Below, piece after piece: positions 5,840-39,364 of a stretch of DNA of 64,000 nucleotides. The notes beneath the pieces are model-generated. The model did not search any database. It was not told the origin of the DNA and worked only from the letters and a program-made list of their open reading frames with translations. The stretch comes from Eubacteriales bacterium (GTDB lineage Bacteria > Bacillota > Clostridia > Oscillospirales > CAG-272): NCBI GenBank assembly GCA_045577755.1, contig JAZNJA010000055.1, positions 974-64,973 on the forward strand, written 5' to 3'. A program made the translations under genes and the position numbers. Every line of letters starts with the position of its first letter. Positions within the stretch are counted from its first letter, which is position 1.

Positions 5840-5955
5840 AATAATCACATCCTTTGAAAATTCTAATTTACCGTTCTGCTTTATCGCAAGTTTCGCCTTT
5901 GTATTACAAAGGCACAGGGCAAAGCCCACACCCCTAAAGTTGCACGCATCCAAAG

Positions 5956-10007: not shown

Positions 10008-11573
10008 TTACTCGGTCACGGGGATCAGGGTAACGGTACCGCCCTGGGCGCCGTCCCAAACCAGCTGAACCTTGTACTTGCCGTCAGCCTCAACGACGAT
10101 GTTAGCGCCGTTGAACTCAACGCCGAAGTTCACGTCCCAGGAAGCGCCCTGGCGAACCTTGAACTCCTGGCCGGCCTTCAGCTCCAGAACCTCGGAGGTG
10201 TAGGTGCCTGCGGGCTCCTCGGTCATGGGGAAGTCGGTATCCCAGTTGGTGTCGCAGATGTTACCGATCACGCCCCAAGCGTTCTTCTGCTCGTCGGTCA
10301 TCTGGAACAGACCGTCGATGGTGGTCTTGTACTCATCCAGAGCGGTCTGGAGGTCAGCGTCGGAGGTAGCGGCCTTAGCGTCAGCGCCCAGGACCTTGGC
10401 GATATCCCACCAAGAACCGTGGATCTGACCCTGAGGAACACCGAACTCACCCTGCTTAGCCAGAGCAGCCAGAGAGGGGTTAGCCTGGACAGCCTCGGAA
10501 GCCTGAGCAGCCTTGTTGGAGGGACCCCACTGGAACTGCTCGTATCTCTCCAGCTGGCACTCCTCGCCGGTCAGGTACTGAGCCAGCAGAGAGAGGACAG
10601 CGGCCTTCTTAGCGTCGGTCTGGGGCTTGACACCCATCAGCTTGTTACCGGTGTAGGAGCCCAGGTGGTAGGACTTGCCATCCACCTCGAAGGAGGGCAG
10701 GTCGGTTGCGCCGAAGTTCGCGCCGAAGTGCTCCTCGGCGGCCTCAGCGTTCCAGATACCGGTGATGATGACACCGGCGTCGGTGAAGATATCAGCGTTG
10801 CTGTCGTAGCAGGAGGACTGAGCCAGCTTCTGCATACCCTTCATAGCAGCCAGACCCTCAGCGGAGTTGAAGGTGTCATCCACGGAGGTGAAGTTACCCT
10901 CGGTGTCCATGGACCAGTTGGAGTGGCAGCCGGTAGCGAAGAAGAAGGAAGCGGTGTACCAAGCGTTCTCCAGAGCGTAGCGGAACTTCAGGTTGTTGGC
11001 CTCGCAAGCGGCGATGAGCTTCTCCATGGACTCAGCATCCTCGGCGGAGATGATGCTGGTGTTGTAGTACATGTAGTAGCCGTTGTCGGAGGTCATGGGG
11101 TAAGCGTACAGGGTACCGGCAACGGAAGCGGCGGCAACGGAGCCGGCGTCGTTGTTGCTCTTGATGGTCTCAGCGGCCATCTTACCGGGAGCGGCCAGAG
11201 CGGCGGCCTGGACAAGGCGAGCCAGCTGGTCCTGAGCGAAGCAGTAGATGTCGGGAGCGGTAGCCACGTCAGCGACAACCAGGGAACCGGCGTCAGCCTC
11301 GGTAACACCCTCGATCTTGGCGTTGATGACGATGCCGGGGTTGGCAGCCATGAAAGCCTCGATCTGCTTCTGGGTCAGGGCAGCGACGCCCTCCTTCTCG
11401 GACACCCACATGGTGATGTCGTAGGTGCCTGCAAGCTCAGCGCTGGCGTTGCCATTGTTATTGGAGCCTGCGGTGGTCTCCTCATTACCGGCATTGTAAG
11501 TGGTGCAGGATGCGAAGCAAGCAACCAGCATCAGAGCGGCCAGCACGAGGGACAGAATCTTACTCATCTTCAT
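10008..11573 (-). CDS. extracellular sugar-binding lipoprotein (ABC SBP) with extra C-terminal CBM-like beta-sandwich
   Basis: Start re-set to an ATG 10 nt after GGAGGA. Signal and lipobox MKMSKILSLVLAALMLVACFASC. The MalE-like body is followed by about 100 extra aa (WGVIGNICDTNWDTDFPM...LKAGQEFKVRQGASWDVNFG). Confidence 0.9.
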   Translation of the reverse strand: MKMSKILSLVLAALMLVACFASCTTYNAGNEETTAGSNNNGNASAELAGTYDITMWVSEKEGVAALTQKQIEAFMAANPGIVINAKIEGVTEADAGSLVVADVATAPDIYCFAQDQLARLVQAAALAAPGKMAAETIKSNNDAGSVAAASVAGTLYAYPMTSDNGYYMYYNTSIISAEDAESMEKLIAACEANNLKFRYALENAWYTASFFFATGCHSNWSMDTEGNFTSVDDTFNSAEGLAAMKGMQKLAQSSCYDSNADIFTDAGVIITGIWNAEAAEEHFGANFGATDLPSFEVDGKSYHLGSYTGNKLMGVKPQTDAKKAAVLSLLAQYLTGEECQLERYEQFQWGPSNKAAQASEAVQANPSLAALAKQGEFGVPQGQIHGSWWDIAKVLGADAKAATSDADLQTALDEYKTTIDGLFQMTDEQKNAWGVIGNICDTNWDTDFPMTEEPAGTYTSEVLELKAGQEFKVRQGASWDVNFGVEFNGANIVVEADGKYKVQLVWDGAQGGTVTLIPVTE

Positions 11574-11627
11574 AACAAGTAAATCCTCCATTGTTTTTAA
11601 TTTTTACGCCTGAGGCGTATTCAACTT

Positions 11628-11656
11628 ATTATATCATTTTCTTTTTGTTTTGTCAA
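11628..11656 (-). promoter_or_regulatory. consensus sigma-A promoter internal to the glucan operon, upstream of the SBP gene
   Basis: Minus strand reads TTGACA-17 nt-TATAAT exactly, about 55 nt upstream of the SBP start. Confidence 0.65.
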
Positions 11657-11743
11657 CAAAAAAATGAACCTTTGGTTGATTTTCAGCGTTGTGGACAATT
11701 TCCAGCCTAATTGGACATAAATTCCCGATTCCATGCACAAAAT

Positions 11744-13357
11744 TCAGCCGAGGATCACGCTGGTCTGGGGGCCTACGGTCAGAATGCTCCCCTCCAGGGT
11801 GGCGTTTCCGACACCGATGGCATCCAAAATCTCGGAGGGGATAAAGCCATCGTTCCCCGTCAGAGCGGACAGATCCAGCGTCAGCTCCTCCATGGAGGTG
11901 TTGTGGATCAGAAGCAAGGTGTCGTCGTCATGGCGGATGACGAAGCCGCCGAGGTTCTTCTCAACGTTGACGGCGGTATAGTCCCCGCGGGCGATGGCGG
12001 GATACTTATGACGGACCGAAAGGAGCTTACAATAGTAATTGTAGAGGCTTGCCCCGTCGGCCATCTGGGTGGCGGCGGTGGTGGGGATCTGCTTGTCGGC
12101 GGGATAGGTGGAGCCTACGGGGTCGCGGATGAGGTCGTCATCCCCCCAGAGCATGGCCAGGCGGCGGTTGGCATCGGTATTCTCACCGCCGCGGGAGCCC
12201 CGCATACCCAGCTCCTCGCCGTAGTAGATCACGGGGGATCCGGGGGAGAGGAGGTAGAGGTTGGCCGCCATGCGCATATGGTTCTCGGTGATGAAGGCAC
12301 CCGCGATGCGGTCCATGTCGTGGTTGGACAGGAAGGACATCATCATGCCGTCGGGATTTTTCGCCAGCACCTTGTCCTGATAGGAAGTGATGTAGCCCGT
12401 GTACTTGGAGATGGACTGTCCCTTGGCGGCGTTGGCCACCACGCCCTCGGCCTGGGCCATGGTGAAGTTGAAGCAGTTGAGGGCGGGGAAATACTCCAGC
12501 ACCTCGCTGTCCCCCGACCAGCACTCGCCCACGCAGTAGATATCGGGCTTGATCGCACGCAGCTCGGTCATGTACCACTCCCAGAAGTCCACCGAGCGGG
12601 CGGTGTCCCCGAAGTAGATGTACTTCACCGCGTCGAAGCGGAAGCCGTCCACACCCAGGTCCAGGTAGTGCTTGGCCACGTCCAGAGAGGCCTTACGCAC
12701 CGCGGGATTGTCGAAGTTCAGCTCGGGCATCCCCCCCGAGAAATTGCACTCGTACCAGCAGTCCACTCCTGCGATCTTCTGGTAGGTCACGCCGTTCACC
12801 TTCTCGGCGGTGGTGGCGCAGGAGTAGAAATCGTAGTAGGGGTCGGACGTATTGCCGCCCACGCGGGCCTCCTTGAACTTAAGGAACCACTCGTGCTGAT
12901 TGGATGTGTGGTTGATGGCCAGGTCCAGGATGACCTTGACGTTGCGCTCGTGGCAGAGAGTAATGAGCTCTTTCAGATCCTCCTCGGTGCCGAACCGCCA
13001 ATCGATGGCGTAGTAGTCCTTGGCGTCGTACTTGTGGTAGGAGGGGGAGGTGAAGATGGGGGAGAGCCAGATGCCCTGGACGCCCAAGCTCTTACCCGAG
13101 TGAATGTTGCCGTCGTTGAGGTAATCCAGGCGGTTGATGATGCCCCGCAGGTCTCCGATGCCGTCGCCGTTGGAGTCCGAGAAGGATCCCACGAAGATCT
13201 GGTAGAAGGTGCGGAAGTTGTCGTCGATGGGATCGACCTCAGCCTCGGGCCCGGAGGGCTGATCCTTCCCGCCGCCGCAGGCGGTCATGGCCAGTGCCGA
13301 GAGAAGGACCGTAGCGGCCAGCAGAGCCGAGATCCACTTGATCTTGTTCTTTTGCAT
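11744..13357 (-). CDS. GH13 alpha-amylase-family lipoprotein
   Basis: 537 aa with lipoprotein signal ...LSALAMTACGG. GH13 conserved regions DLAINHTS, GVDGFRFDAVKY, VGECW and FLSNHD. Confidence 0.9.
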   Translation of the reverse strand: MQKNKIKWISALLAATVLLSALAMTACGGGKDQPSGPEAEVDPIDDNFRTFYQIFVGSFSDSNGDGIGDLRGIINRLDYLNDGNIHSGKSLGVQGIWLSPIFTSPSYHKYDAKDYYAIDWRFGTEEDLKELITLCHERNVKVILDLAINHTSNQHEWFLKFKEARVGGNTSDPYYDFYSCATTAEKVNGVTYQKIAGVDCWYECNFSGGMPELNFDNPAVRKASLDVAKHYLDLGVDGFRFDAVKYIYFGDTARSVDFWEWYMTELRAIKPDIYCVGECWSGDSEVLEYFPALNCFNFTMAQAEGVVANAAKGQSISKYTGYITSYQDKVLAKNPDGMMMSFLSNHDMDRIAGAFITENHMRMAANLYLLSPGSPVIYYGEELGMRGSRGGENTDANRRLAMLWGDDDLIRDPVGSTYPADKQIPTTAATQMADGASLYNYYCKLLSVRHKYPAIARGDYTAVNVEKNLGGFVIRHDDDTLLLIHNTSMEELTLDLSALTGNDGFIPSEILDAIGVGNATLEGSILTVGPQTSVILG

Positions 13358-13360
13358 AAT

Positions 13361-14692
<1,332 letters not shown>

Positions 14693-17368
14693 TTACTTGA
14701 CCAGGGTGTCGCTCACATACACGCGGATGCTGATGCCCTCCAGGGTGACGCTTCCGCTCTGCTTCTCCAGAACGCTACCGCCTGCGCGGGTGCCGTCGGC
14801 CACCAGGTTCCACTCGCCCTCCAGAGTGTAGGGCAGACCCGTGTTGTGGGGATTGATGACCACCAGAGCCTTACCGCCCTGACCGTCCTCGAAGATAATG
14901 GCCAGGATGCCGCTGCCCAGCTCCTCCACGCCCGCCACGGTGGCGGCCTTATCGGTGAAGATGCCGAAGGTCTTTCTCATCTCGATAAGTCCCTTATAGT
15001 AGAGCATGGTGGTGTACTCGCGGCTGCCCTCCTTGAGGACAGACCAGTTGATGTTGTTGATGGCGTCGGAGGACTTGTAGCTGTTCTCGTCGCCGTCCTT
15101 GGTGCGGAGCATCTCCTCACCCGCCTGCCAGAAGGGAGTACCCTTGGAGATGAGGTTGATGGCCGCGCCCAGATTGTTCATGCGGTTTCGCTCGTCGTCG
15201 CTGTTGTCGGGGTTGGAGAGCAGGAGCTTATCCCACAGGGTGTTGTTGTCGTGGGCGCTCAGGTAGTTGATGACCAGGCTGTCGGGTACGGTCCAGCCCA
15301 CACCGGCACCCTGACCGCCCTTGATGCCGAAGAGCACCTTGTTCTTGTTGGCGGTGGTGGCGCCGCTGATGAAGCCCTTGGAGGCCTTATCGAACACGCT
15401 TCCCTTCAGACCGTCGCGGATGGCGTCGTTGAAGACGGCGATACCGCCGATGGCATCCCCCGTGGGATTGATCTGGCCAATATTGCCCTGGTTAGCCTGG
15501 GCAGAGCCGTCGATGGTGGCACCCATGGTCCAGCCCTCGCCGTAGAGGATGGCGTGGGGGTTGACGGTGTGGACGGCGGACTCCACCTTTTGCATGGTCT
15601 CCAGGTCGTGGAGGCCCATCAGGTCAAAGCGCAGACCGTCCAGGTGGTACTCCTCGGTCCAGTAGGCGGTGGATTCCACCATGAACTTACCGAACATATA
15701 GCGCTCCGAGGCGGTGTCGTTGCCGCAGCCGCTGGCGGAGGAGTTGGCGCCCGTATTGGTGTAGCGGTAGTAGTAGTAAGGAACGATACGGTTGAATGAG
15801 CTGTTGGCATCGTAGGTATGGTTGTAGACCATATCCATGATGACGCCGATGCCCGCCCTGTGGAGGGCCTGCACCATCTGCTTGAACTCACGGATGCGGA
15901 CGTCACCGTTGTGAGGGTCGGTGGAGTAGCTGCCCTCGGGGACGTTGTAGTTCTTGGGATCGTAGCCCCAGTTGAACTCGGCATCGGGGTTGCCCTCGTC
16001 CACGGTGGCGTAGTCGTACACGGGGAGGAGATGAACGTGGGTGATGCCCAGCTGCTTCAGATAGTCCACACCCACAGCCATGCCGTGCTCGTTGACAAGA
16101 CCGGATTCGGTGAAGGCCAGGTACTTGCCCTTATACTGCGAGGACGCGATCTTGTTGGAGAAGTCCCGGACGTGGACCTCCCAGATGATAGCCTCGGTGT
16201 AGGAATGGATGGGGTTCTGCAGGATATCGGTGTCCCAGCCCTCGGGGTTGGTCTTGGTAAGATCCACCACCATGGAGCGGTTGCCGTTCAAGCCCGCGGC
16301 CTTGCCGTAGGGGTCGGTGGCGGTCTGGGTGCCGACAGCGGTGGTGACGGTGTAGGTGTAGTAGGTACCGTGACCGCAGGCCTCGGTGTGGCTCCAGACA
16401 CCCTTCTCCCCGCGGGTCATGGGGATATTCTTGATGAGAGACTCGGTGTGACCGTCGGAGTAGAGATTCAGACTCACTTCAGAAGCGGTGGGAGCCCAGA
16501 CCTTGAAGGTGGTCTGATCGCCGTTGACGACAGAGCCGAGATCGGTGCCGTCGTAGTGGAAGTTATCGGCGAAGTACTTGCTGTCGAAGATGTCCATGGG
16601 CACCACGGTCTTTTCGCCGTAGCCCTCGATCTCCACGCGGTAGCTCTTGGAGAGGTCCAGGGCCTCCTCCACTTCAATATAGCCGGTAGCGGCCTCGCGG
16701 CCCATGGTGGAGATGCCCACCACCTTCAGCTCGCGGTCGCCCTCGTAGACCTTGACCTGGCTGTATTCCTTAATGGTAATCTTGGGGTTGACACGGTACT
16801 CGATCTTATGCTGATCCGCCATACCCGCCATAGAGAAATCCTTGATCATATAGAGTGTCTTTCCTCCGTCATCGCTCTTGTACTGGTTGCCGTCACCGGG
16901 CTTGAGGTAGACGAAGGTCTCCTTGCCCTCAATGGTGACGAAGCGGTCCTGATCGAAGTCCTTGGTGGCATTGCCCCAGGAGGTGCCGCCGGGCTCGGAG
17001 CAGTCCTTGCGGACGATGAAGCCCACCTGAGTTACGCCCTCGGGGATATTCACCACGACCTTGGCACCGTAGCCGCACTCGTGGAACAGGTAGCCCTTAC
17101 CGGCCACGTCTCCCCACCAGATCCACATATCGCAGTTCTCATAGCTGCCGTTGTAGGTCCAGTAGAAGGTGACCTGGTTGTAGCCCTCCTCCGGAGGGAG
17201 CTTATACTCGTTCTCAGGGATGTCGGGGGTGGGCTGCCCCTGGGTCTCCGGGGTATCGGTCGTGTCGGTCGTGTCGGGGTTGGCCGCAGGCTGGCAGGCC
17301 ATCAGCAGCGCCGACAGGATCATGAGCAGCGCCAGCAGCAGCGCCACGTTTCTTTTGGTTTGTGTCAT
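14693..17368 (-). CDS. pulA: type I pullulanase (GH13 with N-terminal CBM-like domains), lipoprotein
   Basis: 891 aa with signal ...SALLMACQ. GH13 regions DMVYNHT, GLRFDLMG, YGEGW and YLSAHDN. N-terminal Trp-rich CBM-like region. Confidence 0.92.
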   Translation of the reverse strand: MTQTKRNVALLLALLMILSALLMACQPAANPDTTDTTDTPETQGQPTPDIPENEYKLPPEEGYNQVTFYWTYNGSYENCDMWIWWGDVAGKGYLFHECGYGAKVVVNIPEGVTQVGFIVRKDCSEPGGTSWGNATKDFDQDRFVTIEGKETFVYLKPGDGNQYKSDDGGKTLYMIKDFSMAGMADQHKIEYRVNPKITIKEYSQVKVYEGDRELKVVGISTMGREAATGYIEVEEALDLSKSYRVEIEGYGEKTVVPMDIFDSKYFADNFHYDGTDLGSVVNGDQTTFKVWAPTASEVSLNLYSDGHTESLIKNIPMTRGEKGVWSHTEACGHGTYYTYTVTTAVGTQTATDPYGKAAGLNGNRSMVVDLTKTNPEGWDTDILQNPIHSYTEAIIWEVHVRDFSNKIASSQYKGKYLAFTESGLVNEHGMAVGVDYLKQLGITHVHLLPVYDYATVDEGNPDAEFNWGYDPKNYNVPEGSYSTDPHNGDVRIREFKQMVQALHRAGIGVIMDMVYNHTYDANSSFNRIVPYYYYRYTNTGANSSASGCGNDTASERYMFGKFMVESTAYWTEEYHLDGLRFDLMGLHDLETMQKVESAVHTVNPHAILYGEGWTMGATIDGSAQANQGNIGQINPTGDAIGGIAVFNDAIRDGLKGSVFDKASKGFISGATTANKNKVLFGIKGGQGAGVGWTVPDSLVINYLSAHDNNTLWDKLLLSNPDNSDDERNRMNNLGAAINLISKGTPFWQAGEEMLRTKDGDENSYKSSDAINNINWSVLKEGSREYTTMLYYKGLIEMRKTFGIFTDKAATVAGVEELGSGILAIIFEDGQGGKALVVINPHNTGLPYTLEGEWNLVADGTRAGGSVLEKQSGSVTLEGISIRVYVSDTLVK

Positions 17369-19173: not shown

Positions 19174-20019
19174 TCAGTCGGGGGCGGTATCCCGCTCGGG
19201 GGCAAGCTCACCCAGCTTATCCAGCAGGTATTCCACGGCGGAGGTATCGGGTAGGCAGGCGTAATCCAACACGGGGACACACTCCGTCACGTTGATCAGC
19301 AGAGGAAGCAGGGCGTTGTTGAAGGCGGGATCGTCGGCGCTCTTGATGGCCTGACTGTACAGAGCCATGAAGGCGTGGCGGCGGTCCAGCCGCTCGGCGT
19401 GATTGGTCTTTCCTTGATGAAGATACACAATGGCACGGACGGGCGCCCACAGATCCCGGAAGATGCGGGAGGTTCCCGCCACGGGACCGCCATAGGCCAC
19501 GGGCCGATTCCCGTCCGCCGAGAGGATCACCTTGTCTCCGTTGATGATCTCGGCACCGAGATGCTCGACCCACAGGTTGGCCTGCGTGGACTTTCCCGTC
19601 CCCGAGGGGGCGGTGAAGAGAATGGCGCAGCCGTCGTGGATCACCGCGGAGGCGTGGAGCATGATCCGCTGATAGGGGAGAAGCAGCCGTTCCGGCATCA
19701 GAAACAGTACCCAGTTCGCGTTGACGCAGAACTTATCCGCGAGGCTTTGAGGAACAAAAAGCCGACAGGTGTGATTCCTGTCGGCCGGGATAACGCGGAT
19801 GAAGCATTCTCCGTCTTTTCTCGGAAAAATCTTAACGCTGTCAGAATCACTGTAGCAAGCTTGTTCTGTTCCAAAAATAACCTCTATGACCCAGTCCGGC
19901 TCGTGAGTCGAGAGATCCTCGCGCCAAAAGGCCGCGAGATTCTCGGGTAAACGCAAGGGGCGGGGCGCGAGGATACGAAGATGTATCCCCGCGATCCGCA
20001 GATCATAGGTATTCGTCAT
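19174..20019 (-). CDS. HPr kinase C-terminal-domain-like P-loop protein (K1), paralogue of 45256-45960
   Basis: 281 aa. RIMLHASAVIHDGCAILFTAPSGTGKST (Walker A) in the LHa..v...g.a.l..G.SG.GKS context of HprK-related kinases. GAGGA RBS. 14-nt gap after the peptide gene. Confidence 0.75.
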   Translation of the reverse strand: MTNTYDLRIAGIHLRILAPRPLRLPENLAAFWREDLSTHEPDWVIEVIFGTEQACYSDSDSVKIFPRKDGECFIRVIPADRNHTCRLFVPQSLADKFCVNANWVLFLMPERLLLPYQRIMLHASAVIHDGCAILFTAPSGTGKSTQANLWVEHLGAEIINGDKVILSADGNRPVAYGGPVAGTSRIFRDLWAPVRAIVYLHQGKTNHAERLDRRHAFMALYSQAIKSADDPAFNNALLPLLINVTECVPVLDYACLPDTSAVEYLLDKLGELAPERDTAPD

Positions 20020-20033: not shown

Positions 20034-20270
20034 TCAGGACTGGAAGCCGGTCTTGACGTGGCTGTGGTAGCAGAGGGTATCGCCGACGTCACCGATGTAA
20101 CCGAGGTCGCCGTCCTCATTATCAAAGTCAAACTCGCAAGCGTCACCGATGAACCATCCCTGAGCCTTCAGCTCGGGAGACTCGGAAAACTGATCGCAAG
20201 ACGCGGCAATGGGCATATCCAAGGACATGACCTCTACATGAATCGTAGGTTTGCTGTATTCTCTCTTCAT
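20034..20270 (-). CDS. small acidic peptide P1 (78 aa), RiPP/lasso-precursor-like N-terminus
   Basis: ATG 11 nt after AGGAGG. MKREYSKPTIHVEV leader-like start (YxxPxI). 15 Asp/Glu against 5 Lys/Arg, and 3 Cys. Acidic loop DFDNEDGDLGYIG. C-terminal Ser. Confidence 0.65.
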   Translation of the reverse strand: MKREYSKPTIHVEVMSLDMPIAASCDQFSESPELKAQGWFIGDACEFDFDNEDGDLGYIGDVGDTLCYHSHVKTGFQS

Positions 20271-20289
20271 GATTCTATGCACCTCCTTG

Positions 20290-23200
20290 TTAGTTGTTGG
20301 AGCCCTTGACCACGCTCGCGTAGATAGCGGCGGTCTCAGCCATGAGGTCGCTGGCGAACACGTCGTACATATCCTGGGTAGCCGACACCTCAGCGGCGGC
20401 GGTGCCCTGGGAAAGCTTGTAGCCGTTCAGCTTGATGTTGGTCAGAGCCAGCACGTTGAGGTTGAGGTCACTTGTGCCAATGATCACAAGTGCTCGGTTG
20501 GTACCGTTGGGATTGCTGAAGACCAGGTCATCCTCCACGGTGAAGTACTGCTCGGTACCGCTGCAAACGCTGTGAACGTTCTCGTTCGCCTCAAAGTCCT
20601 CGGCGCTGTTGCCGAAGAACATCTCCACGGGGCTGTCGTTGCCGGTAGCCTTGATGTGGGCACCGATCTGGATGCTTCTCTCGCCCTCGAAGTCCTCGAC
20701 AAGCTCCACGTAGAAGGCGATGTAGGTGAAGGCCTCGCGGGGATTGCCATCGGCGTCGGCGGGGTTGGAGAGGTAGATCTCGTTGTTGGGACCGTAGGTC
20801 ATGTAGTCGGCCACGCTGTCGGTCTGGGTCATGATGAGATCGGCGCTGATCCGGTCATCGGCGGGACGGAAATTCTCGATCATGGTGTTACCGAACTGCC
20901 ACTTGGCAGCGCCGGCAGCCACGTCGGAGCCGCTGACGACCTGACCGTACACGATGGTACCGTTCTTGATAGAGGTCTTGATCTCGTGGAAGGTCACGTT
21001 GGACTCGTCGGCCTTGTAGAGCCCGCTGCTCTGCTCGGCAGTCAGAGGCTGGTAGACACGGACACCGTCCACGTAGACCATGCGAGCGATCTGATTGTAG
21101 TTGGAGGTATAGACAGTCACGCGGTAGGTGCTGTGAGCCATATCCTTACGGACCACGTAAGGCACCTGGGTCAGCTCACCCGAGACGCACTCGGTGATGA
21201 CGGGAATAGCCTTGACCTCGCCGTTCTTCAGATTCTCGATCTTGACGGTCAGCAGGGCGTAGGCCTTGGCGGTGGTGCGACCGACGATCTCGAAGCCGGT
21301 ACCGGTGAAGGTAAAGCTCATGATCTCGGCGCGCTCGGTGCCGTTGACGGCCATGGCGTGGATGGTGTCGTTGGAGGCGTCACCGAGGATAGCGTGGGAC
21401 ACGCCGTCCATGGTGCCGTGGATGGTCTGGAAGATCTCGTCGCCGACACCGCCCAGGATGCTCTGATCGTCGCCCTCCACGTAGGAGAGATCCAGCTGGC
21501 CGCGGTTATTGGTACCGCCGGCGGTATAGCCGGGATCCGAGCCGTAGTTCAGATTCTGATCGGGAGCCTGGTAATCCTTGACGGCGTCGCCCTCAAAGAC
21601 GGCCCAGATGTTGCCGGTGGCATCCTTACCGGTGTTGACGTAGGTGATGGCGCCCTCGCCGGTGAAGTTATCCTCGTAGTACATGACGTTGGCGGGAGCG
21701 AAGGTCACGGTCTGGAGCATTTCCACACCGGTCCACTTGCTGAGACCGTCAGCATCCGTCTCCATGAGGGTGATTTTGATATTGAAGGTATCCACGCCGT
21801 TCATGATCTTGTTCATAACGTAAGTGACGGCGGTATTCAGACCCTCGTCTTTGGTACTGAAGGTACCGAAGTGATCGGTGAAGTCCAGGAACTCGATCTG
21901 CAGATCCATACCGTTGGGGTTATCGATAAGGCCCAGGATATCGTTGGCCACCAGACCGTGGTCCTGCGTAAGAACGGTCACGGGGAGGTTGTAGTCCAGG
22001 ACGAAGACGTTATCGCCCACGCCATAGACGTACACGTCCACACGGACGGGAGGATAGGTGTTGCCGTCTGCGGTACAGGTCACGTAGAAGGCATCGACGC
22101 CACACTTGGGAGCCTGATAGAGGAAGTCGCCGTTTTCCAGTGCGGTGACGTACTTGTTGATGTCGCCGCCCTCCAGGTTACCGGCGGGAGAGGACAGAGC
22201 GAAGGTCAGATTACGACCGCTCAGAGCACCCTCACCGAGGGTCTGCTCCATGATCTCGCGGATATCCTCGGCGGTGATCAGCACGCCCTTGGAGACGTCC
22301 ACGAAGCTGCCGTCAGCCAGCTTGTTGTTCAGTCTGCCCCAATCGTATACGTGCAGGTTGTTGAACTTGATGTTCGCCTTGTTCACGCGGTGGTAATCGT
22401 TACCGTTCAGGACCTTGTCGGTCACGTTGTCGATATCGGTGGTTGCGGTGGTATACAGGTGGTTGATGTAGTAGGTCTTGCCGTCCTGCTCCACCCACTT
22501 GTCCTCGGGGATCTTGTAGGAGAAGCCGCCAATGGTCAGGCGCTCACCGGCGTTCAGGCCGTCGACCAGATACTCACGGATCGCGGCCTCGTCCAGACCG
22601 GTGACGCTCTCAGCGACGGTGCCGTCGGGATTGTACTTGGTCAGTACAAGCTTATCGACCGTCACACCCTCGGGCAGAGCGAAGCTCTCACCCTCCTTGT
22701 AGGTCAGGTTTGCGCCGATATCGGAATCGGTGAAGGTCAGGTTTTTGAAGGCGATCTGGCTGTTGTTGAAGATCGAGAAGGTGTACTCAACGGGGCTGTT
22801 GTAATCGACCACGCCGTCGTAGCCGATTTCATGACCGTTCTGGTAGGCCTTCTTCTCGGTGATCATGCTGGTATCGGCCACACGGATGTTGGTCTCGATG
22901 GACAGGTTAGCGGCGGTGCCGTGACGCTCCATGTAGAAGAAGTCGAAGCTGTAGATGCCGCCCTCCTCCAGGCCGCAGACCTCAGCCACGTCGTTCAGGC
23001 TGACCTTGACCTTGGAGATGGGGTGGGTACCGCCCACGTCGACGATACGCTTACCGTTGACGTACAGGTACACGTCGTCGTCACCGATGAAGGTGAAGTA
23101 CAGGTCCTCACTGTAGTGGTAGACGAAGTGAGCATGACCCTCCATAGTATAATGGAAGTTGGTGGTCTTGTAGTAGATGTTCTCGGAGTACGTGTTGTAG

Positions 23201-25377
23201 TTACCAAGCATCTTGCGGTAGGTATCCTGCTCTCTGGAGGCGCCGTTGACGTCGTAGCCCAGACCGAACAGGGGGTCGAAGCAGCCGACGGGCTGCTTGT
23301 TACCGCGGTGGTAGTACCAGTCGCCGGTGTTGCCGTTCAGTCTGCGCTGGGTGGCGAGCTCGAACTGGCTGTTCTGGATGATACCGTCGACACGGTCGTA
23401 GGTAACGTTATCGAACGCGGTACTGAACACGTAACGGACGTTTCCGTTCTCGTCAGTCTTGGCGACCAGATTCAGAGTGTTGTACTCGTTGGCGGTCATA
23501 CCGTAGCCGGGGTTGTCTACGAAGGTATTGTGGAGCAGGAAGTAGGCAGCGTCCATGTAGGTCTCGATGTGATTCAGACCGTTACCGCCGACCAGATCCT
23601 TGACCTTAGCCTGAGTGGCCTCGTAGGTACCGGACTGGGCATTTGCCAGCTTTTCGCGCAGGTAGGAGGCCAGGTCCTTACCGCCGTACGCCTCGTCTGC
23701 CTCGCCCTTGATGAAGTTCATATTGGTCTTACCGTTGGTCGTCTCAGGAAGGGGCAGAAGCTTTTCCAGGTACCAGGCGATAAACTCCACGACGCCTTGA
23801 CGGTACACAGGCTTGCCGTTCTCGCCCAGCTCAGCCTCCACCAGATCGTAGCGGATCTCCGCGCCGTAGACGTCCTGCTTCGCACCGCTGTTCAGGATCA
23901 CCTCAATGGGATCGGGCTCAGGCTGATACGTGTTGATGGAAGAGCCGTTGGCGACGTAGGTATAGTCGTTGCCGTTCTCGTCGCGAAGGACGATCAGCTC
24001 CTCGAACTTCTCGCGCACCTCGGGGTCATACTTGCCCAGGATCAGGTCGGCGTTTCTGGAACCGATCAAGGCGGTCAGCGCGAAGCCGCCGTTGTTACCC
24101 AGATTGTGATTCGGATAGCCGTTGAGATCGGGATCCAGGGCACTGTACTCGAACAGCATACCGTCGGCTCTGTAGTCGCGGATGGTGATGGGGAGAGCCA
24201 CCAGGCTGTGCTTCTCTGCCTCCACGCAGGCCTCGGCGCCCGAGAGGGTAGAGAAGGTGCGGATATAGGCAATATCCATCACGGGGTTTTCGCCGTCCGT
24301 GGTAGAGTCACCGTCGTAGAAGTCGAAGCGCAGATTCTTTACAGGTCTGCTCTCGCCAGACAGCACATCGGCGTGGACAATGACGGTCTCCCATTCGCCC
24401 GAATCGTCGAAGGTAATTTCGGTCGACATGGCTCCCGAATAGTGTCCGCGGCCATCGAAGTCATAGAAGAAACGACCGGTCGTGATGTTGGAGGTACGGT
24501 ACTTGATGACGATATAGTCCATCTTGCTGCCTGGGATCTGGCTGATCTGAGAGTCAAGGGTACCGATTTCAAAGAAGGGATCGCTCTCCACGCCCTCAAC
24601 AGTCAAAAAGCCTCGGTCGGTGGGACGCTTGAAGTCAATCTTCGACTTGGTGGCATCGCCGGGGACCGTGTAGTTCTGGATCTCATGGGTAACGATGGGA
24701 TCGTCGGTATGCTGGGTCAGATCAGCGGAGGCACTGGCCTTGACCACGTCGGCAACGGTGTAATTGAAGGCCAATACGTTGTTGGAGCCGTTGATCGATG
24801 CGGTGCGGAACCAGAAAGCCGCGTTATTGGCCGCAGAACTGCCCATGAGCACGGTAAAGCCGTTCTGGTAAGCGCCTCCTGCGCCAAGCTGCTCGCAGGT
24901 CAGGCGGAAATACAGAGAGCCCTCCAGAGATACGCTCGCGGGTATTTCGCAAACAAAATCCGTATTGTCGGCGGGGCCGGTAAATACACCCTCCCAAAGA
25001 GGAGTCTTACCCTCAACCGAAGCGTTCAGGTCGTCCGTATTGCCGTTAGAATTGGTAGCGGCGAAAATGCTGACGCGGATCTTGGGAGGAGTCGTGGCTC
25101 CGTAGTTAGCCATGCTGGGAACCACAAGCCGCACAAGACGCTTCTCGGCGGGAATATGGATCTTACCCCACAGTGCCTCCCCCGTGCCGGCTCGCACAGG
25201 ACCGCAATGCCCTGTGGTGCCTCCCTGATACGTAGAGTAGGTTGCCTCTCCCGGATACTGTGTATCCGCGACGGCGCTCACCTCGTCCTCCGTCGCCGCG
25301 AAAACGGTGCCGGGCACACAGGTCACCACCATCAGTACCGACAGGATGAACGCGAGAATTCTCTTTGCATTCTTCAT
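20290..25377 (-). CDS. giant secreted protein G1 (1695 aa) with fibro-slime/PA14-like domain
   Basis: Start re-set to the ATG 6 nt after AAAGGAG. Signal peptide MKNAKRILAFILSVLMVVTCVPGTVFAA. LPITIRDYRADGMLFEY ... FIGDDDVYLYVNGKRIVDVGGTH ... FFYMERHGTAANLSIETNI. Confidence 0.9.
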   Translation of the reverse strand: MKNAKRILAFILSVLMVVTCVPGTVFAATEDEVSAVADTQYPGEATYSTYQGGTTGHCGPVRAGTGEALWGKIHIPAEKRLVRLVVPSMANYGATTPPKIRVSIFAATNSNGNTDDLNASVEGKTPLWEGVFTGPADNTDFVCEIPASVSLEGSLYFRLTCEQLGAGGAYQNGFTVLMGSSAANNAAFWFRTASINGSNNVLAFNYTVADVVKASASADLTQHTDDPIVTHEIQNYTVPGDATKSKIDFKRPTDRGFLTVEGVESDPFFEIGTLDSQISQIPGSKMDYIVIKYRTSNITTGRFFYDFDGRGHYSGAMSTEITFDDSGEWETVIVHADVLSGESRPVKNLRFDFYDGDSTTDGENPVMDIAYIRTFSTLSGAEACVEAEKHSLVALPITIRDYRADGMLFEYSALDPDLNGYPNHNLGNNGGFALTALIGSRNADLILGKYDPEVREKFEELIVLRDENGNDYTYVANGSSINTYQPEPDPIEVILNSGAKQDVYGAEIRYDLVEAELGENGKPVYRQGVVEFIAWYLEKLLPLPETTNGKTNMNFIKGEADEAYGGKDLASYLREKLANAQSGTYEATQAKVKDLVGGNGLNHIETYMDAAYFLLHNTFVDNPGYGMTANEYNTLNLVAKTDENGNVRYVFSTAFDNVTYDRVDGIIQNSQFELATQRRLNGNTGDWYYHRGNKQPVGCFDPLFGLGYDVNGASREQDTYRKMLGNYNTYSENIYYKTTNFHYTMEGHAHFVYHYSEDLYFTFIGDDDVYLYVNGKRIVDVGGTHPISKVKVSLNDVAEVCGLEEGGIYSFDFFYMERHGTAANLSIETNIRVADTSMITEKKAYQNGHEIGYDGVVDYNSPVEYTFSIFNNSQIAFKNLTFTDSDIGANLTYKEGESFALPEGVTVDKLVLTKYNPDGTVAESVTGLDEAAIREYLVDGLNAGERLTIGGFSYKIPEDKWVEQDGKTYYINHLYTTATTDIDNVTDKVLNGNDYHRVNKANIKFNNLHVYDWGRLNNKLADGSFVDVSKGVLITAEDIREIMEQTLGEGALSGRNLTFALSSPAGNLEGGDINKYVTALENGDFLYQAPKCGVDAFYVTCTADGNTYPPVRVDVYVYGVGDNVFVLDYNLPVTVLTQDHGLVANDILGLIDNPNGMDLQIEFLDFTDHFGTFSTKDEGLNTAVTYVMNKIMNGVDTFNIKITLMETDADGLSKWTGVEMLQTVTFAPANVMYYEDNFTGEGAITYVNTGKDATGNIWAVFEGDAVKDYQAPDQNLNYGSDPGYTAGGTNNRGQLDLSYVEGDDQSILGGVGDEIFQTIHGTMDGVSHAILGDASNDTIHAMAVNGTERAEIMSFTFTGTGFEIVGRTTAKAYALLTVKIENLKNGEVKAIPVITECVSGELTQVPYVVRKDMAHSTYRVTVYTSNYNQIARMVYVDGVRVYQPLTAEQSSGLYKADESNVTFHEIKTSIKNGTIVYGQVVSGSDVAAGAAKWQFGNTMIENFRPADDRISADLIMTQTDSVADYMTYGPNNEIYLSNPADADGNPREAFTYIAFYVELVEDFEGERSIQIGAHIKATGNDSPVEMFFGNSAEDFEANENVHSVCSGTEQYFTVEDDLVFSNPNGTNRALVIIGTSDLNLNVLALTNIKLNGYKLSQGTAAAEVSATQDMYDVFASDLMAETAAIYASVVKGSNN

Positions 25378-25863
25378 GTTTTTCTCCTTTGTTGTGTTGT
25401 TTTTCGGATTGCGGGCAGCGCGGGGCGAGTCACCTCGCTGCATCCGCAGGGGATCTGCTATGGGGTAAGTGCGAAGGATGGCGCCTCCTCTCGCGGGGAA
25501 TGGCGCGCATTCGACCGTCGGCAGGGGTTCTCAATCCCCGGGCCCGACAACAGTCAGCTCGATCCGTAACCGTTTCCCGACAAGTGATTTCGGGCAACGA
25601 AGGGATCCGACCGGGCCTCGGACGACCATACTTGAACCTTTTGCTTGGGGGGAACGGGTGAGCTGAGCGGCATCGGTCCAAAGGACGGTATCCGACTCGG
25701 GCACCAATGACTGTCTGCAGAAAGATAAAATAAAAGCCTTCTCACGGTTCCGTATTTACCCCCTCGGGGTCTTGAGTCCTCAGGCTGTTTGACTCCGCCC
25801 GCCAATAGAAACACTTCGGGCATTCGTCGATTTGGGCACAACCCACCCTTTGCCTGCGACATA
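25378..25863 (-). promoter_or_regulatory. long (about 485 nt) GC-rich structured 5' leader of G1, class unknown
   Basis: Lies between the promoter at 25871-25899 and the G1 RBS. It has no plausible ORF and multiple local hairpins. Confidence 0.4.
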
Positions 25864-25870
25864 TGTACCT

Positions 25871-25899
25871 ATTATATCACACCTGTAACCAAATCGCAA
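25871..25899 (-). promoter_or_regulatory. promoter of the G1 operon
   Basis: Minus strand reads TTGCGA-17 nt-TATAAT with an upstream TG (TGtGaTATAAT). Confidence 0.65.
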
Positions 25900-26024
25900 G
25901 TTTTTTTCCCTGTTGGCATATACAATTTACAAATAATTAACAATCGCCCAATGGAATCTTCACCAGCGGGCGGTCTCCCGTCCCCTTTCAGATCCAAAAT
26001 ATGCGCCAAGAGGGGCAAAATAAC

Positions 26025-26053
26025 TTGCAAACGCCCGCGAAATATGGTACAAT
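26025..26053 (+). promoter_or_regulatory. candidate azlCD promoter
   Basis: TTGCAA-17 nt-TACAAT with an extended TG, about 45 nt upstream of the azlC start. Confidence 0.55.
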
Positions 26054-26098
26054 AAAAGGGTCTCCCCCGTGCGACATCCATTTCCGAAAGGACATCCC

Positions 26099-27251: not shown

Positions 27252-28808
27252 TCAGCCCAGCGCCTCCAGCAGCTCGCGGCGGACGCTGTCCAGCGCCTCA
27301 TGGGAGAATTCGTAATCGTCAAAGGTGCGGCAGACCTTGTCGATCAGTTCCAGCGCCTTGGCCTTGTCCCGCTTGCCGAGGATATTGAACAGCTCGTAGT
27401 CAACGGCTCCCGCTCTCTGAAGGTGAGCGCGGACGCCGTTCCATACGGTATCTCCCATGGGGTAAACTACATGGCCATTGCCCGCGGGGTAGTTGAGCCC
27501 GTCGGGGTGGTAGTTGGTGTCATAGCGGCCCTCGGGATTGTGGGCGTGGTAACCCCAATGGAGGAATCCGGGGGCATCGTACTTGTAGCACATCCACATG
27601 GGCAGACGGCTGGCCGTCAGGGGTAGGTCAATGATGCGGTTCATACAGTAGCCTCCGGGGAAGCCGCAGGTGTAGATCCACATGGTCTCGCCACAGGCCT
27701 GCAGACGCTTGTAGTCCTCGATGTACTTCTCAAACACCGCCTGCTTGACCACCCAGATGTCGCAGGCTCCCGCCAGCTCGGAGGACTCCACGGGATCGTT
27801 GATGATGACACCGGGGATACACTTGCGGCAGATGCCCGACAGGGCGCGGTAAGTCAGGCTATTGGGGAACTGGGGCTCGTCTACCAGACACTGCATATAG
27901 TTCTTCTCCCAGCCGTTGCGCTTGATGCACTCGTAGGCGCGGGTGAAGTAGATCTTGAGCTGGCGGTAGCCTTCGATGGAGGAGGCGGTGATGTCTCTGT
28001 CCCACAGAAGGAAATGATCGGGGTCGTCCCAAACCTTGAAGCGGGCCACGAAGCCGCCCATGATGTACTTGAAGCCATGGGCCAGGGCGCGGTTGCCCAC
28101 CAGCTCGGCGGCGGTGAAGTCGAAATCCACTACCTTCCCTTCCCCGTCGCGGACAGGAGTGCCCGAGGGGATCATGAGGTAGTCGTTTCTCATATCGATC
28201 TGATTGTCCAGGTAGCGGTCGAGAATCTCCATATACCCCTCGGAGTAGGGCTCCACCTTGTGATCCGATGCCAGGCGGCCGTAGTAGATCCAGTTGACCA
28301 TGTGGAATTCCGAATCCGCGAGGGCGGGGACACGGACGTTGTAGATCTTGACCGACACGGGGACGGTCAGCACCGCCTCCCCCATGCGGATGGTCAGGTC
28401 ACTCTCAAACACCCCCACGGGAGCATTGGCGGCCACGTTGATACGGATATAGAAAGCGGCGCGTCCGGTCTCGGTCTCCCCTTCGTCAATGGGGCGGGTG
28501 ATCTCGTAGACGTCGAAGGGCGCCTTGCGGGTGACAAAGTGCTTGACCGACTCGTAATCGGTGGTGCAGAGCATCTTGGCGTCGCTGTTCAAGGGGACGG
28601 TGGCGGTCAGAAGCTGGTAGACCACGGCCTCACAGCCCTCCATGGAGAAATCGGCGGTGACGGTCTCGCCCTCGGCCAGGATATGGTCGGTCAGCACCTG
28701 GAAGCAGACATCGGCGCCGCGGGGGGCATACAGCTCGGCTCTGTTCTGAACCGTGATCTCACTGTCGGGATAGACCCACTGGTTTTCTGAAAAGACCTGA
28801 TATTTCAT
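27252..28808 (-). CDS. DUF4091 / GH123-like glycoside hydrolase (cytoplasmic)
   Basis: Start re-set to MKYQVFSENQWVYPDSE after GAAAGGA. N-terminal pattern and size are typical of DUF4091 proteins. No signal peptide. Confidence 0.7.
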   Translation of the reverse strand: MKYQVFSENQWVYPDSEITVQNRAELYAPRGADVCFQVLTDHILAEGETVTADFSMEGCEAVVYQLLTATVPLNSDAKMLCTTDYESVKHFVTRKAPFDVYEITRPIDEGETETGRAAFYIRINVAANAPVGVFESDLTIRMGEAVLTVPVSVKIYNVRVPALADSEFHMVNWIYYGRLASDHKVEPYSEGYMEILDRYLDNQIDMRNDYLMIPSGTPVRDGEGKVVDFDFTAAELVGNRALAHGFKYIMGGFVARFKVWDDPDHFLLWDRDITASSIEGYRQLKIYFTRAYECIKRNGWEKNYMQCLVDEPQFPNSLTYRALSGICRKCIPGVIINDPVESSELAGACDIWVVKQAVFEKYIEDYKRLQACGETMWIYTCGFPGGYCMNRIIDLPLTASRLPMWMCYKYDAPGFLHWGYHAHNPEGRYDTNYHPDGLNYPAGNGHVVYPMGDTVWNGVRAHLQRAGAVDYELFNILGKRDKAKALELIDKVCRTFDDYEFSHEALDSVRRELLEALG

Positions 28809-28900
28809 AGGTTGGTTCCTTTCCGGGATGAAATGGGGATCGCGCTTGGTTTTTCGCGCCTGTGGCGGTACAGTCATTATAGCACAGGGCGGGCAATTGT

Positions 28901-37764: not shown

Positions 37765-37776
37765 GCAAAAATATAA

Positions 37777-37813
37777 AGATTGGATGGTCCTTGCGGACTA
37801 TCCAATCTTTTTT
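37777..37813. terminator. rho-independent terminator between convergent genes
   Basis: AGATTGGATGGTCC ttgc GGACTATCCAATCT followed by TTTTTT, with an A-rich 5' flank. Confidence 0.7.
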
Positions 37814-37872
37814 CATGGCGACGCTTCCATCGGGCGGTGAATTCGGCGCAAGAGCTGAACGGCATCGTGAGA

Positions 37873-39168: not shown

Positions 39169-39306
39169 GGAGTACACTTCCTTTCATAGCGGACGAGGAT
39201 CGGAGCAGCTCCGGAGCAGCTTCTCCACCGTTTCTATTATACCACAGGGACATCTCACCGTCTGCGTTGAATTTCCACATATTTATGTAATTTGGTCACG
39301 TTCCCG

Positions 39307-39335
39307 TTGACTTCTCTCCCAACATATGATATAAT
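39307..39335 (+). promoter_or_regulatory. candidate promoter of the second AraC gene
   Basis: TTGACT-17 nt-TATAAT, about 30 nt upstream of the 39365 start. Confidence 0.6.
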
Positions 39336-39364
39336 AACAGCAACTCATACAAGGAGGCTGGATC

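Follow-up and report, generated by a model that had tools for sequence, protein, structure and literature searches.

We analyzed a stretch of DNA of 64,000 nucleotides (nt) from an Eubacteriales bacterium (CAG-272; assembly GCA_045577755.1, contig JAZNJA010000055.1, positions 974 to 64,973, forward strand), hereafter called the window, which encodes two small peptides, P1 and P2, each beside a gene for an HprK-like protein (K1 and K2). P1 and P2 are probably precursor-type peptides of two related, distinct cassettes that combine a RiPP (ribosomally synthesized and posttranslationally modified peptide) recognition element (RRE) with a kinase, each cassette being an operon whose first gene encodes a giant secreted protein (giant1 and giant2). 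Both peptides have homologs and low ratios of nonsynonymous to synonymous substitution rates (dN/dS), and they are therefore real genes under purifying selection. The genes concerned are the following, with the evidence for each in parentheses.

19174-20019, minus strand: K1, 281 amino acids (aa), ScmC/HprK-related P-loop protein of the N-G-D-K type (NCBIfam; orthologs tagged PF27840 ScmC)
20034-20270, minus strand: P1, 78 aa, ATG start (reading of the open reading frame [ORF]; 35 homologs)
20281-20288, minus strand: ribosome-binding site (RBS) of P1, AAGGAGG, between the giant1 stop (20290-20292) and the P1 ATG (20268-20270) (direct reading)
20290-25443, minus strand: giant1, 1717 aa, secreted (signal peptide, domain matches)
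44074-44337, minus strand: PqqD-family RRE, 87 aa, last gene of the P2 cassette (Pfam PF05402, 5.5e-12, above cut-off)
44434-44952, minus strand: 172-aa protein with a membrane-anchor/lipoprotein-like N-terminus (ORF, conserved position)
45016-45201, minus strand: P2, 61 aa, GTG start, AGGAGG RBS 10 nt upstream (ORF reading, synteny, four homologs)
45256-45960, minus strand: K2, 234 aa, ScmC/HprK-like kinase of the N-D-D-K type (NCBIfam ScmC 1.2e-8, AlphaFold2 model, Foldseek)
45966-55289, minus strand: giant2, 3107 aa, secreted, with signal peptide and MBG_2 domains, stop 5 nt before K2 (domain matches)

An earlier reading of this DNA (here the original prediction) had described P1 and P2 as RRE- or kinase-addressed peptides, and that context stands: both lie beside HprK-like kinases, and PqqD genes are present in the P2 cassette and in cassettes orthologous to that of P1. 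The original prediction was placed at 20034-20270, an interval outside which P2 (45016-45201) lies, and it overlooked the radical S-adenosylmethionine (rSAM)/SPASM partner, the Cys/QGW/CYH core, the giant upstream partner, and the loss of an Asp in K1-type proteins.

P1 and the class I peptides

P1 starts 19 nt past the giant1 stop, and K1 starts 14 nt past P1. The N-terminus of P1 is MKREYSKPTIHV and its leader is MKREYSKPTIHVEVMSLDMPIAAS; the landmarks are Y5-S-K-P8-T-I10, Cys25/45/67, QGW37-39, CYH67-69, and the C-terminal Ser78. The original prediction had read Y5-x-x-P8-x-I10, three Cys residues, and a C-terminal Ser in P1 and had described P2 as Cys-free and ending in DDD, all of which is confirmed. 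It had also supposed that further family members exist and that the conserved positions are under selection. Both suppositions are borne out: P1 has 35 homologs of 74 to 85 aa (49 to 95% identity) and P2 has four, and the conserved positions are not neutral, with dN/dS (Nei-Gojobori) of 0.04 to 0.17 for P1 (four orthologs; a fifth had a saturated dS) and 0.10 for P2. The comparison of P1 with its 95%-identical ortholog gives a dN/dS of 0.04 at a dS of ~1, while the neighboring giants are only 42% identical, which makes the peptide the most constrained gene of its operon.

Across the 36 sequences of the P1 subfamily, the invariant positions are Lys2, Y5, P8, T9, I10, V12, E13, D18, P20, A22, C25, Q37-G38-W39, C45, C67, H69, and S78. 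The YxxPxI motif (Y5, P8, and I10) is kept in 36/36 members, consistent with the RRE-type leader proposed for P1. The C-terminal Ser, which had also been singled out as significant, is equally constant in the subfamily (36/36) and ends 35 of 39 foreign peptides of the wider family described below, the rest ending in Ser-Leu (3) or Ser-Tyr (1), against a background of 5.7%. Residues 46 to 63 form the least conserved block of P1, with a mean identity of 0.32 versus 0.88 for residues 1 to 24.

An alignment of K1 and K2 was used to scan 185,579 species genomes for relatives of the two kinases, and the best 80 of at least 229 loci were fetched. All 80 are from Bacillota, most of them from Oscillospiraceae, Lachnospiraceae, and other Clostridia of the gut. 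A small ORF adjoins the kinase on the same strand in 35 of the 80 loci and encodes a peptide of a common pattern, here called class I: MKKxYxKPx[IVM]x[FV]ExFxLxxx[IV]A(x)xC, then a core that varies and contains Cys, in many cases CYH, and a Ser at the C-terminus. The aligned consensus of this wider family is MKKxYxKPxIxFExF..IAxxC...C...CYH...FxS, and the whole of P1 can be aligned with 27 members from other genomes. A hidden Markov model (HMM) of the class I leader, comprising 26 positions and built from 38 foreign kinase-adjacent peptides with P1-like sequences left out, was run against the six-frame translation of the window and gave P1 as its sole significant match (E = 2.6e-6), aligned end to end over the 26 positions. 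P1 shares with class I not only the leader but also the further Cys residues, the CYH motif, the terminal Ser, and the ScmC-type kinase 14 nt downstream. Judged by these sequence features, P1 is a bona fide member of class I, a large, widespread, and uncatalogued peptide family of gut Clostridia.

No NCBIfam model matched P1, P2, or ten diverse class I relatives, no Pfam model matched P1 or P2, and the P1 profile had no match in the PDB. The AlphaFold2 prediction for P1 from the 36-sequence alignment had a predicted local distance difference test score (pLDDT) of 51 and a predicted template modeling score (pTM) of 0.25, with no confident fold; this fits a substrate peptide without proving one. 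A metagenome scan with the P1 alignment returned three short contigs only, with no usable context.

Class I cassettes in related genomes

When all ORFs of the 80 kinase loci were clustered against one another, a set of recurrent gene families emerged. The kinase itself was present in 72 loci, an rSAM/SPASM enzyme (~380 aa) in 48, PqqD in 39, and homologous giants in 31. Further families were an MsbA-like ATP-binding cassette (ABC) exporter (25 loci), a 268-aa membrane protein (22), an S26-type signal-peptidase-like protein (21), and NTP_transf_5 (15). Among the 35 class I loci, many of which lie on contigs that end early, we counted the kinase in 32, the rSAM/SPASM enzyme in 30, a giant of the homologous cluster in 23, and PqqD in 20. 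The loci orthologous to that of P1 share one gene order: PqqD, a giant (737 to 1710 aa, the giant1 ortholog), P1, ScmC (PF27840), a protein of 490 to 1063 aa that is often of glycoside hydrolase family 20 (GH20), and an rSAM/SPASM enzyme (385 to 394 aa). These orthologous rSAM enzymes match the NCBIfam models ScmE and ScmF at 1e-23 to 4e-29, and the best NCBIfam match of the orthologous PqqD proteins is ScmD.

In two loci, L030 (8281-8738) and L040 (8314-8771), a class I peptide of 80 aa ending in FTS is followed 57 nt later by a Cys-free acidic peptide of 52 aa that ends in PEDPL and belongs to the second class described below; one cassette can thus serve both peptide classes. Divergent [FeFe]-hydrogenase-maturase-like genes flank P1-family cassettes in L001 (1173-4133), L004 (2488-7003), L105 (1507-2900), and L106 (2777-6901). 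These sets comprise Radical_SAM+BATS, Radical_SAM, TM1266-like, and, in one locus, HydF genes, and none of them is found in the window.

Kinases K1 and K2

K1 and K2 are paralogous (34% identity, E = 3e-21), and their P-loops read APSGTGKST and GPSGVGKST, respectively. The NCBIfam matches of K1 are HprK_rel_B (2.8e-5), ScmC (1.6e-4), and HprK_rel_A (2.4e-4), all under the curated cut-offs, and its dN/dS is ~0.15 to 0.18. K2 has at least 3375 homologs at E <= 1e-5, with the PF27840 tag on 120/120 among the matches listed. A sequence search of the PDB with the kinase profile returned P-loop-level matches only (HprK, E = 0.37), and a fold search was therefore needed. The AlphaFold2 model of K2 (pLDDT 94.9, pTM 0.91) was matched by Foldseek to phosphoenolpyruvate carboxykinase (PEPCK; 4.1e-6) and to L. 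casei HprK/P (7.5e-6 to 2.2e-5, target-normalized template modeling score 0.47 to 0.58, probability 1.00) in the PDB. The model thus places K2 in the HprK/P-PEPCK catalytic-domain fold, with a P-loop.

Lasso-associated HprK-like kinases (PadeK/ThcoK) phosphorylate the hydroxyl of a conserved C-terminal Ser of the precursor, and a His-Lys-Asp-Asp set is essential in these enzymes (PMC9266682). Assigned by motif position, this set corresponds to H77, K98, D118, and D119 in K2 and to H122, K143, G161, and D162 in K1. Eight other N-D-D-K kinases, the type to which K2 belongs, all occur in loci without class I peptides, and seven of these eight loci are also without an rSAM gene.

P2 and its cassette

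The P2 operon runs on the minus strand in the order giant2, K2, P2, the 172-aa protein, PqqD, and a terminator-like hairpin. P2 begins with (M)KEKYTKAKMSI, has no Cys, is acidic, and ends in DDD. Its family consists of five sequences, the four homologs having come from a word-indexed search and from searching 1.84 billion representatives exhaustively with an HMM. The P2 profile search of those representatives recovered two genuine family members, one of them new (P0040); the candidates P0041 and P0042 were rejected as repeat-inflated artifacts. The invariant parts of the family are MKEKYTKAKM and GEIGxG..TNTxPxxPDD, and the acidic C-terminus is conserved. The order giant, ScmC, P2, a protein of ~172 to 174 aa, and PqqD is kept in relatives with 62% peptide identity, where no rSAM gene is present.

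The 172-aa protein carries a lipobox-like LCVSCG, an acidic linker rich in Pro, and a small, conserved domain at the C-terminus, and it has no family match in Pfam or NCBIfam. A gene for 172 to 174 aa occupies the equivalent position in L005 to L008; it is conserved in every P2 cassette and fast evolving (dN/dS 0.40).

Kinases with ~60% identity to K2 in other Oscillospiraceae occur in loci ordered as a giant (2324 to >5700 aa), a short Cys-free acidic peptide, ScmC, PqqD, an uncharacterized protein, a small protein, and an ABC exporter. The small protein is at the position of the S26-type peptidase, and NTP_transf_5 is present in one such locus. The short Cys-free acidic YxKP peptides of these loci include MKNYEKPTVEVVSFQPEIIMIEAEDELYANLPSVGGGAEEW and MKKQYEKPTAVKVSFAVEDVLMDDGTLTPITGSDKGDVNPPFAIDEGYQNP, and similar peptides are found in L030, L040, L077, L079, and L085. 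P2 fails every class I feature, and its context and composition fit this second group of short, Cys-free, acidic peptides (class II). It is set apart from class II by an invariant Ala in place of the Pro, by escaping the class II leader HMM, and by a cassette without peptidase, transferase, or exporter.

Two adjacent MsbA-like ABC exporter genes (58689-60935 and 61501-63801, both on the minus strand) lie 3.4 kb upstream of giant2. These exporters are ~27 to 33% identical to exporters inside kinase cassettes elsewhere.

Proposed maturation of the peptides

The sequence analysis itself establishes that both genes are real, the family to which P1 belongs, the makeup and synteny of the cassettes, the conservation patterns, the fold of K2, and the PqqD domain; from analogous systems, we infer each chemical step, RRE binding, the sites of phosphorylation, and what becomes of the products. 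In P1-type cassettes, the PqqD RRE would dock onto the YxxPx[LIV]-type leader (MKxxYxKPxIxVE...IAA), and the rSAM/SPASM enzyme would cross-link the conserved Cys residues, by analogy through thioether-type bonds. The HprK-like ScmC would act on a Ser hydroxyl, most plausibly that of the C-terminal Ser78 and in the manner of paeninodin. The [IV]-A-[AG] sequence ahead of the first Cys may represent an S26-peptidase-type cleavage site. P2 would instead undergo RRE-guided (poly)phosphorylation of an internal Ser/Thr, similar to the linear polyphosphorylated peptides (LPP) discussed below.

Giant secreted proteins

The likely start of giant1 is MKNAKRIL at 25377, followed by a signal peptide. This protein carries a fibro-slime/PA14 domain (aa 761 to 854; TIGR02148, 2.2e-24) and is orthologous to the giants of L001, L004, and L095. 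Its C-terminal module of ~550 aa (aa ~1150 to 1700) is common to peptide-preceding giants in 17 or more loci and has no match in Pfam, NCBIfam, or the PDB. Past the signal peptide, giant2 has no detectable similarity to giant1, and in L005 and L099-L101 the place of giant2 is taken by giants of 2324 to >5700 aa. In the class I loci, the gene immediately upstream of the peptide encodes at least 700 aa or is cut by the contig end in 22 of 35 cases. The spacer between giant and peptide is 13 to 20 nt in 20 foreign loci and 19 nt in the window. Giants of 1000 to >5700 aa are found upstream of peptides in L009, L020, L021, L042, L062, L070, L071, L081, L083, L099-L101, and others. No known RiPP logic accounts for the coupling of giant and peptide.

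It is conceivable, if doubtful, that the peptides are not free bioactive RiPPs and instead are dedicated partners of the upstream giants, as a cross-linked or phosphorylated subunit, a cofactor carrier, or an anchor. A model for such a role is QhpC, the small Cys-cross-linked gamma subunit of quinohemoprotein amine dehydrogenase, for which QhpD is the rSAM/SPASM maturase. The near-constant spacer and the frequency of upstream giants in class I loci are in line with this idea, as are the presence of a giant upstream in K2-type loci and in all P1-family loci whose sequence extends far enough upstream, the shared C-terminal module of no known family, the conservation of P1 beside a giant that is far less similar, and the lack of an exporter or leader peptidase in P1-type cassettes. 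However, the peptides have no signal peptide, and without an exporter their encounter with a Sec-exported giant is unexplained; in addition, giant2 lacks the shared module, and 13 of the 35 class I loci have no upstream giant. The QhpC analogy would cover a leader peptide of ~80 aa, several conserved Cys residues (with a Trp in P1), an rSAM/SPASM enzyme, and an adjacent large protein partner, whereas there is no sequence similarity, no PDB match for the P1 profile, and no dehydrogenase domain in the giant, and the Qhp system is not known to have a kinase or a discrete PqqD-type RRE.

In its broadest form, which seems rather unlikely to us, this idea would describe a new and widespread two-part system of gut Clostridia in which a giant is cotranslated with a leader peptide that is matured by PqqD, an rSAM/SPASM enzyme, and an N-G-D HprK-like protein and then serves the giant, with P1/giant1 and P2/giant2 as two versions. 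We would only tentatively, and with limited expectation, assign the peptide of such a system the part of a cross-linked subunit, a cofactor carrier, or an anchor linked through its C-terminal Ser rather than that of a free antimicrobial RiPP.

The reduced P1 locus

Several observations weigh against our preferred reading of P1 and P2 as precursor-type peptides of two RRE-plus-kinase cassettes, and the first group concerns the P1 locus of the window, which consists of giant1, P1, and K1 only and is followed by an unrelated convergent gene after K1. Within the window, no PqqD, rSAM, leader peptidase, or nucleotidyltransferase gene lies beside P1. When the PqqD, GH20, rSAM, and accessory proteins of orthologous loci served as tblastn queries, nothing was found there, and no CxxxCxxC protein is present among the predicted genes of the 64 kb. 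A window-wide search for rSAM, PqqD, S26 peptidase, NTP transferase, and the c5 protein found only the PqqD of the P2 cassette and the generic ABC exporters, and this PqqD is distant from those of P1-type loci (21% identity, E = 0.004). The second group concerns the kinases, since every match of K1 and K2 is under its curated NCBIfam cut-off. All 31 typed kinases adjoining class I peptides read N-G-D-[KR], with Gly replacing one Asp of the tetrad. With that Asp missing, K1 may not be a conventional kinase, and the sequence pattern suggests that K1-type proteins may have altered activity. The terminal Ser, moreover, is retained in all P1-family loci in which the kinase is missing or truncated. 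The third group concerns P2, which reads Y5-T-K-A8-K-M10, with Ala at the Pro position in 5/5 family members, has no terminal Ser, and is missed by the class I leader HMM even at E <= 100 and by a small class II leader HMM.

In other genomes, the loci with the most similar peptides (95% and 79% identical to P1) have kept PqqD, GH20, and rSAM, and their kinase is gone. At the sites of kinase loss (L089, 659-1295; L095, 7907-8549; L106, 10570-11076), there is either a gap of ~640 nt without a tblastn trace or a truncation to 168 aa. The pattern is reversed in the window, where the kinase is kept and PqqD, GH20, and rSAM are not. Of the cassette genes, the kinase seems the easiest to dispense with, because relatives drop or truncate it yet keep the Ser, and the terminal Ser may serve something besides, or on top of, phosphorylation. 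Given that the window locus holds only giant1, P1, and K1, any RRE or rSAM enzyme would have to be supplied in trans by genes beyond the window; otherwise, the kinase would be the only enzyme to modify P1.

A different explanation, quite unlikely in our judgment, is that the P1 locus of the window is a decaying remnant in which a rearrangement removed PqqD, GH20, and rSAM, so that no mature product is made. Orthologous loci have PqqD upstream of the giant and GH20 and rSAM downstream of the kinase, and both parts are gone here; the convergent gene after K1 is unrelated, and loss or truncation of cassette genes is common in relatives. However, P1 and K1 are intact, with an RBS in place and no frameshifts, and the low dN/dS values given above for P1 against its 95%-identical ortholog and for K1 also speak against decay. 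The missing genes could, furthermore, sit outside the 64-kb window.

Resemblance between P1 and P2

The original prediction had aligned the N-termini of P1 and P2 and treated the two peptides as one homologous family with a shared DxDxDG-type Ca2+-binding loop, a view that we consider very unlikely to be correct. The N-terminal alignment holds as a short resemblance with four identities in twelve positions, but not as wider homology. None of 813 ordinary proteins (at least 160 aa, from the 80 related loci) starts with xK..Y.K, and paralogous kinases lie alongside the two peptides, so the resemblance is more than chance. BLASTP gives no alignment of P1 and P2 at E <= 100, and hhalign gives a probability of 3.5% and a pairwise E of 0.012 over 29 N-terminal columns only. 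The cores differ in every conserved feature: P1 has the Cys residues, QGW, CYH, and the terminal Ser, versus GEIGxG..TNTxPxxPDD in P2.

As to the acidic loop, both peptides do contain a D-x-D-x-(x)-D-G-(D/E)-(L/I)-G string (DFDNEDGDLG in P1 and DPDIDGEIG in P2), but these strings are not conserved in the two families. Strict DxDxDG occurs in 0/36 members of the P1 family, and the gapped version of the original prediction occurs in 1/36; in the P2 family, the strict form is found in 3/5 members, the other two reading NPEVEGEIG and DEELNGEIG. At least 60% of class I peptides retain a D(G) position ahead of CYH. Because the loop lies in the most variable block of the P1 family and is limited to three of five P2-family members, Ca2+ binding is unsupported, and the only Ca-related Pfam match, TSP_3 (E = 0.31), is below threshold. 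Of the positions that the original prediction had marked for conservation, Y5 and P8 in P1, or A8 in P2, are thus invariant, whereas the acidic loop varies. The lasso-type leader it had proposed for P2 is not supported, given the family-invariant Ala where Pro is expected.

Relation to known systems

The closest characterized system is LPP (Popov et al., Nat Commun 2026, PMC13381572), with the paeninodin-type kinases and the SynChlorMet (SCM) cassette next. LPP is reported as a system of Bacilli with a YxxP leader, a discrete RRE, and a kinase resembling HprK that acts on a linear core of 45 aa. Its core genes encode a SipW-like SpI peptidase, the discrete RRE, the HprK-like kinase, an NTP transferase, and an exporter resembling MsbA. 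The same source gives the lasso leader motif read by a PqqD-type RRE as [Y/W]xxPx[L/V/I/A/F/Y] (PMC13381572). The common features are non-lasso linear peptides of 35 to 200 aa, a YxxP-type leader, a PqqD-like RRE, an HprK-like Ser kinase, and a location in cell-surface or polysaccharide gene regions. In addition, K2-type relatives elsewhere are accompanied by an ABC exporter and NTP_transf_5, and an S26-type peptidase is found in 21 of the 80 kinase loci. The genes around these K2-type relatives are nearly the LPP set, and the cassette of P2, which pairs a kinase with PqqD and has no rSAM gene, likewise resembles LPP.

There are also differences from LPP. The P2 cassette has only the kinase and the RRE of the LPP core set, and tblastn of the window with representatives of the S26 peptidase, NTP transferase, and c5 families found nothing. 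Compared by eye, the published leader consensus YxxPxVLxHQxIxFETxxS is not matched by P1 (YSKPTIHVEVMSLDMPIAAS) or P2 (YTKAKMSIIVENGDKNILSS); only its YxxPx[IV] part is shared, and only with P1. Class I cassettes additionally encode an rSAM/SPASM enzyme, and their cores are rich in Cys and have Ser as the last residue; their hosts are Clostridia rather than Bacilli. Giant upstream genes are not mentioned in the part of the LPP account that was accessible.

The paeninodin-type systems (PadeK/ThcoK/PsmK; PMC9266682) resemble those described here in having an HprK-fold kinase, a conserved C-terminal Ser, and a YxxP/WxxP leader with a PqqD RRE, and K2 keeps the full His-Lys-Asp-Asp set. They differ in that there is no cyclase or B2 protease here, our cores are 3 to 6 times longer, K1 has Gly for Asp, and P2 is without a C-terminal Ser. 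That P1 and P2 are themselves lasso precursors whose cyclase and protease are encoded elsewhere is scarcely credible: the YxxPxI leader of P1, the kinase-plus-PqqD pairing typical of paeninodin-type clusters, and the matches of the window PqqD to NCBIfam lasso_PqqD models (5.5e-7 and 7.8e-6) point that way, but those matches score 29.7 against a cut-off of 70 and 26.0 against one of 80, neither an Asn-synthetase-like cyclase nor a B2 cysteine protease was found in the window (Pfam scans) or among the gene families of more than 100 related loci, in agreement with the non-lasso character that the original prediction had assigned, the cores (~54 aa in P1, ~45 aa in P2, and up to 147 aa in the family) are too long against ~15 to 26 aa, with a ring-forming Asp/Glu at core position 7 to 9, for lasso peptides, the conserved partner is an rSAM/SPASM enzyme, and no NCBIfam lasso precursor model matches P1 or P2.

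The SCM cassette (NCBIfam TIGR04248-04251) likewise unites an HprK-related protein, a PqqD homolog, and rSAM/SPASM enzymes. In NCBIfam, K2 has ScmC as its best or near-best match; for the PqqD and rSAM proteins of orthologous loci, it is ScmD and ScmE/F, respectively. These scores are well under the equivalog cut-offs: K2 reaches 34.6 bits against 125 for ScmC (K1, 21.1), PqqD reaches 26.5 against 100 for ScmD, and the rSAM enzymes reach 90 to 101 against 400 for ScmE. The architecture is therefore SCM-like without equivalog membership. It also differs from SCM in having one rSAM enzyme rather than two, in occurring in gut Clostridia, and in the interleaved giant and GH20-type protein. To our knowledge, the original definition of the SCM cassette named no precursor.

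Sactipeptides and ranthipeptides, which are abundant in Clostridia, share Cys-containing precursors, N-terminal leaders, an rSAM/SPASM enzyme, and an RRE with class I. However, the rSAM enzymes match the sactipeptide maturases StsB, AlbA, and SkfB more weakly than ScmE/F and AhbD, the kinase and the invariant terminal Ser have no counterpart there, and no precursor model of NCBIfam or Pfam matched any of 11 class I peptides tested.

The cassettes thus work like LPP, the lasso kinases, and SCM and belong to none of them, since the cyclase, protease, and short core of lasso peptides, the complete gene set and the leader consensus that define LPP, and equivalog-level SCM scores were looked for and found wanting. 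We rate them as RRE-guided peptide modification of a known type that newly pairs an HprK-like protein with rSAM/SPASM chemistry. Searches of the open-access literature turned up no account of class I peptides or their terminal Ser, nor of the N-G-D type of kinase or the association with giants. They likewise yielded nothing on SynChlorMet, on ScmC (among the records listed, only unrelated uses of the acronym), on HprK with radical SAM in RiPPs, or on HPr kinase with SPASM.

If the reading of P1 and P2 as precursor-type peptides is true, P1 would represent a candidate substrate family for SCM-type cassettes of ScmC, PqqD, and rSAM/SPASM, and the LPP concept would extend from Bacilli to gut Clostridia and be joined with radical-SAM chemistry. 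The family is large, as the numbers of K2 homologs and kinase relatives given above indicate, is carried by gut bacteria of humans and animals, and escapes Pfam and NCBIfam. Clear-cut features for testing are the invariant C-terminal Ser, the three invariant Cys residues, the CYH motif, and the Gly-for-Asp replacement in the kinase. The coupling to giant glycan-binding or adhesin-like proteins could mean a new way to equip or anchor surface proteins in gut commensals.

Genomic surroundings

The surroundings of the two cassettes are rich in glycan-utilization genes (10008-17368, 27252-28904, 36871-43838, and 55958-58640), as is typical for gut Clostridia. They encode a solute-binding protein, a GH13 amylase, GH53, a pullulanase, GH123, GH43, GH36, GH95, FucU, and two AraC regulators. 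Another ORF of 172 aa (5435-5953, minus strand) has a G+C content at third codon positions of 0.36 versus ~0.8 for the window genes, and it may be a recent acquisition or noncoding.

Noncoding leaders of 625 nt (25444-26068) and 668 nt (55290-55957) lie upstream of the giant1 and giant2 genes. These two regions have no similarity to each other and no Rfam match, and Rfam and tRNA scans of the whole window were empty. Consensus scans, which are pattern matches only, gave two further features.

25871-25899, minus strand: promoter-like site TTGCGA-17-TATAAT with extended -10 TG, sigma-70-like
44031-44063, minus strand: intrinsic-terminator-like hairpin with a 15-bp stem and T-run, 10 nt past the PqqD stop

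The site at 25871-25899, upstream of giant1, is a candidate promoter of the giant1-P1-K1 operon, and the hairpin at 44031-44063 is likely the end of the operon that comprises giant2, K2, P2, the 172-aa protein, and PqqD.

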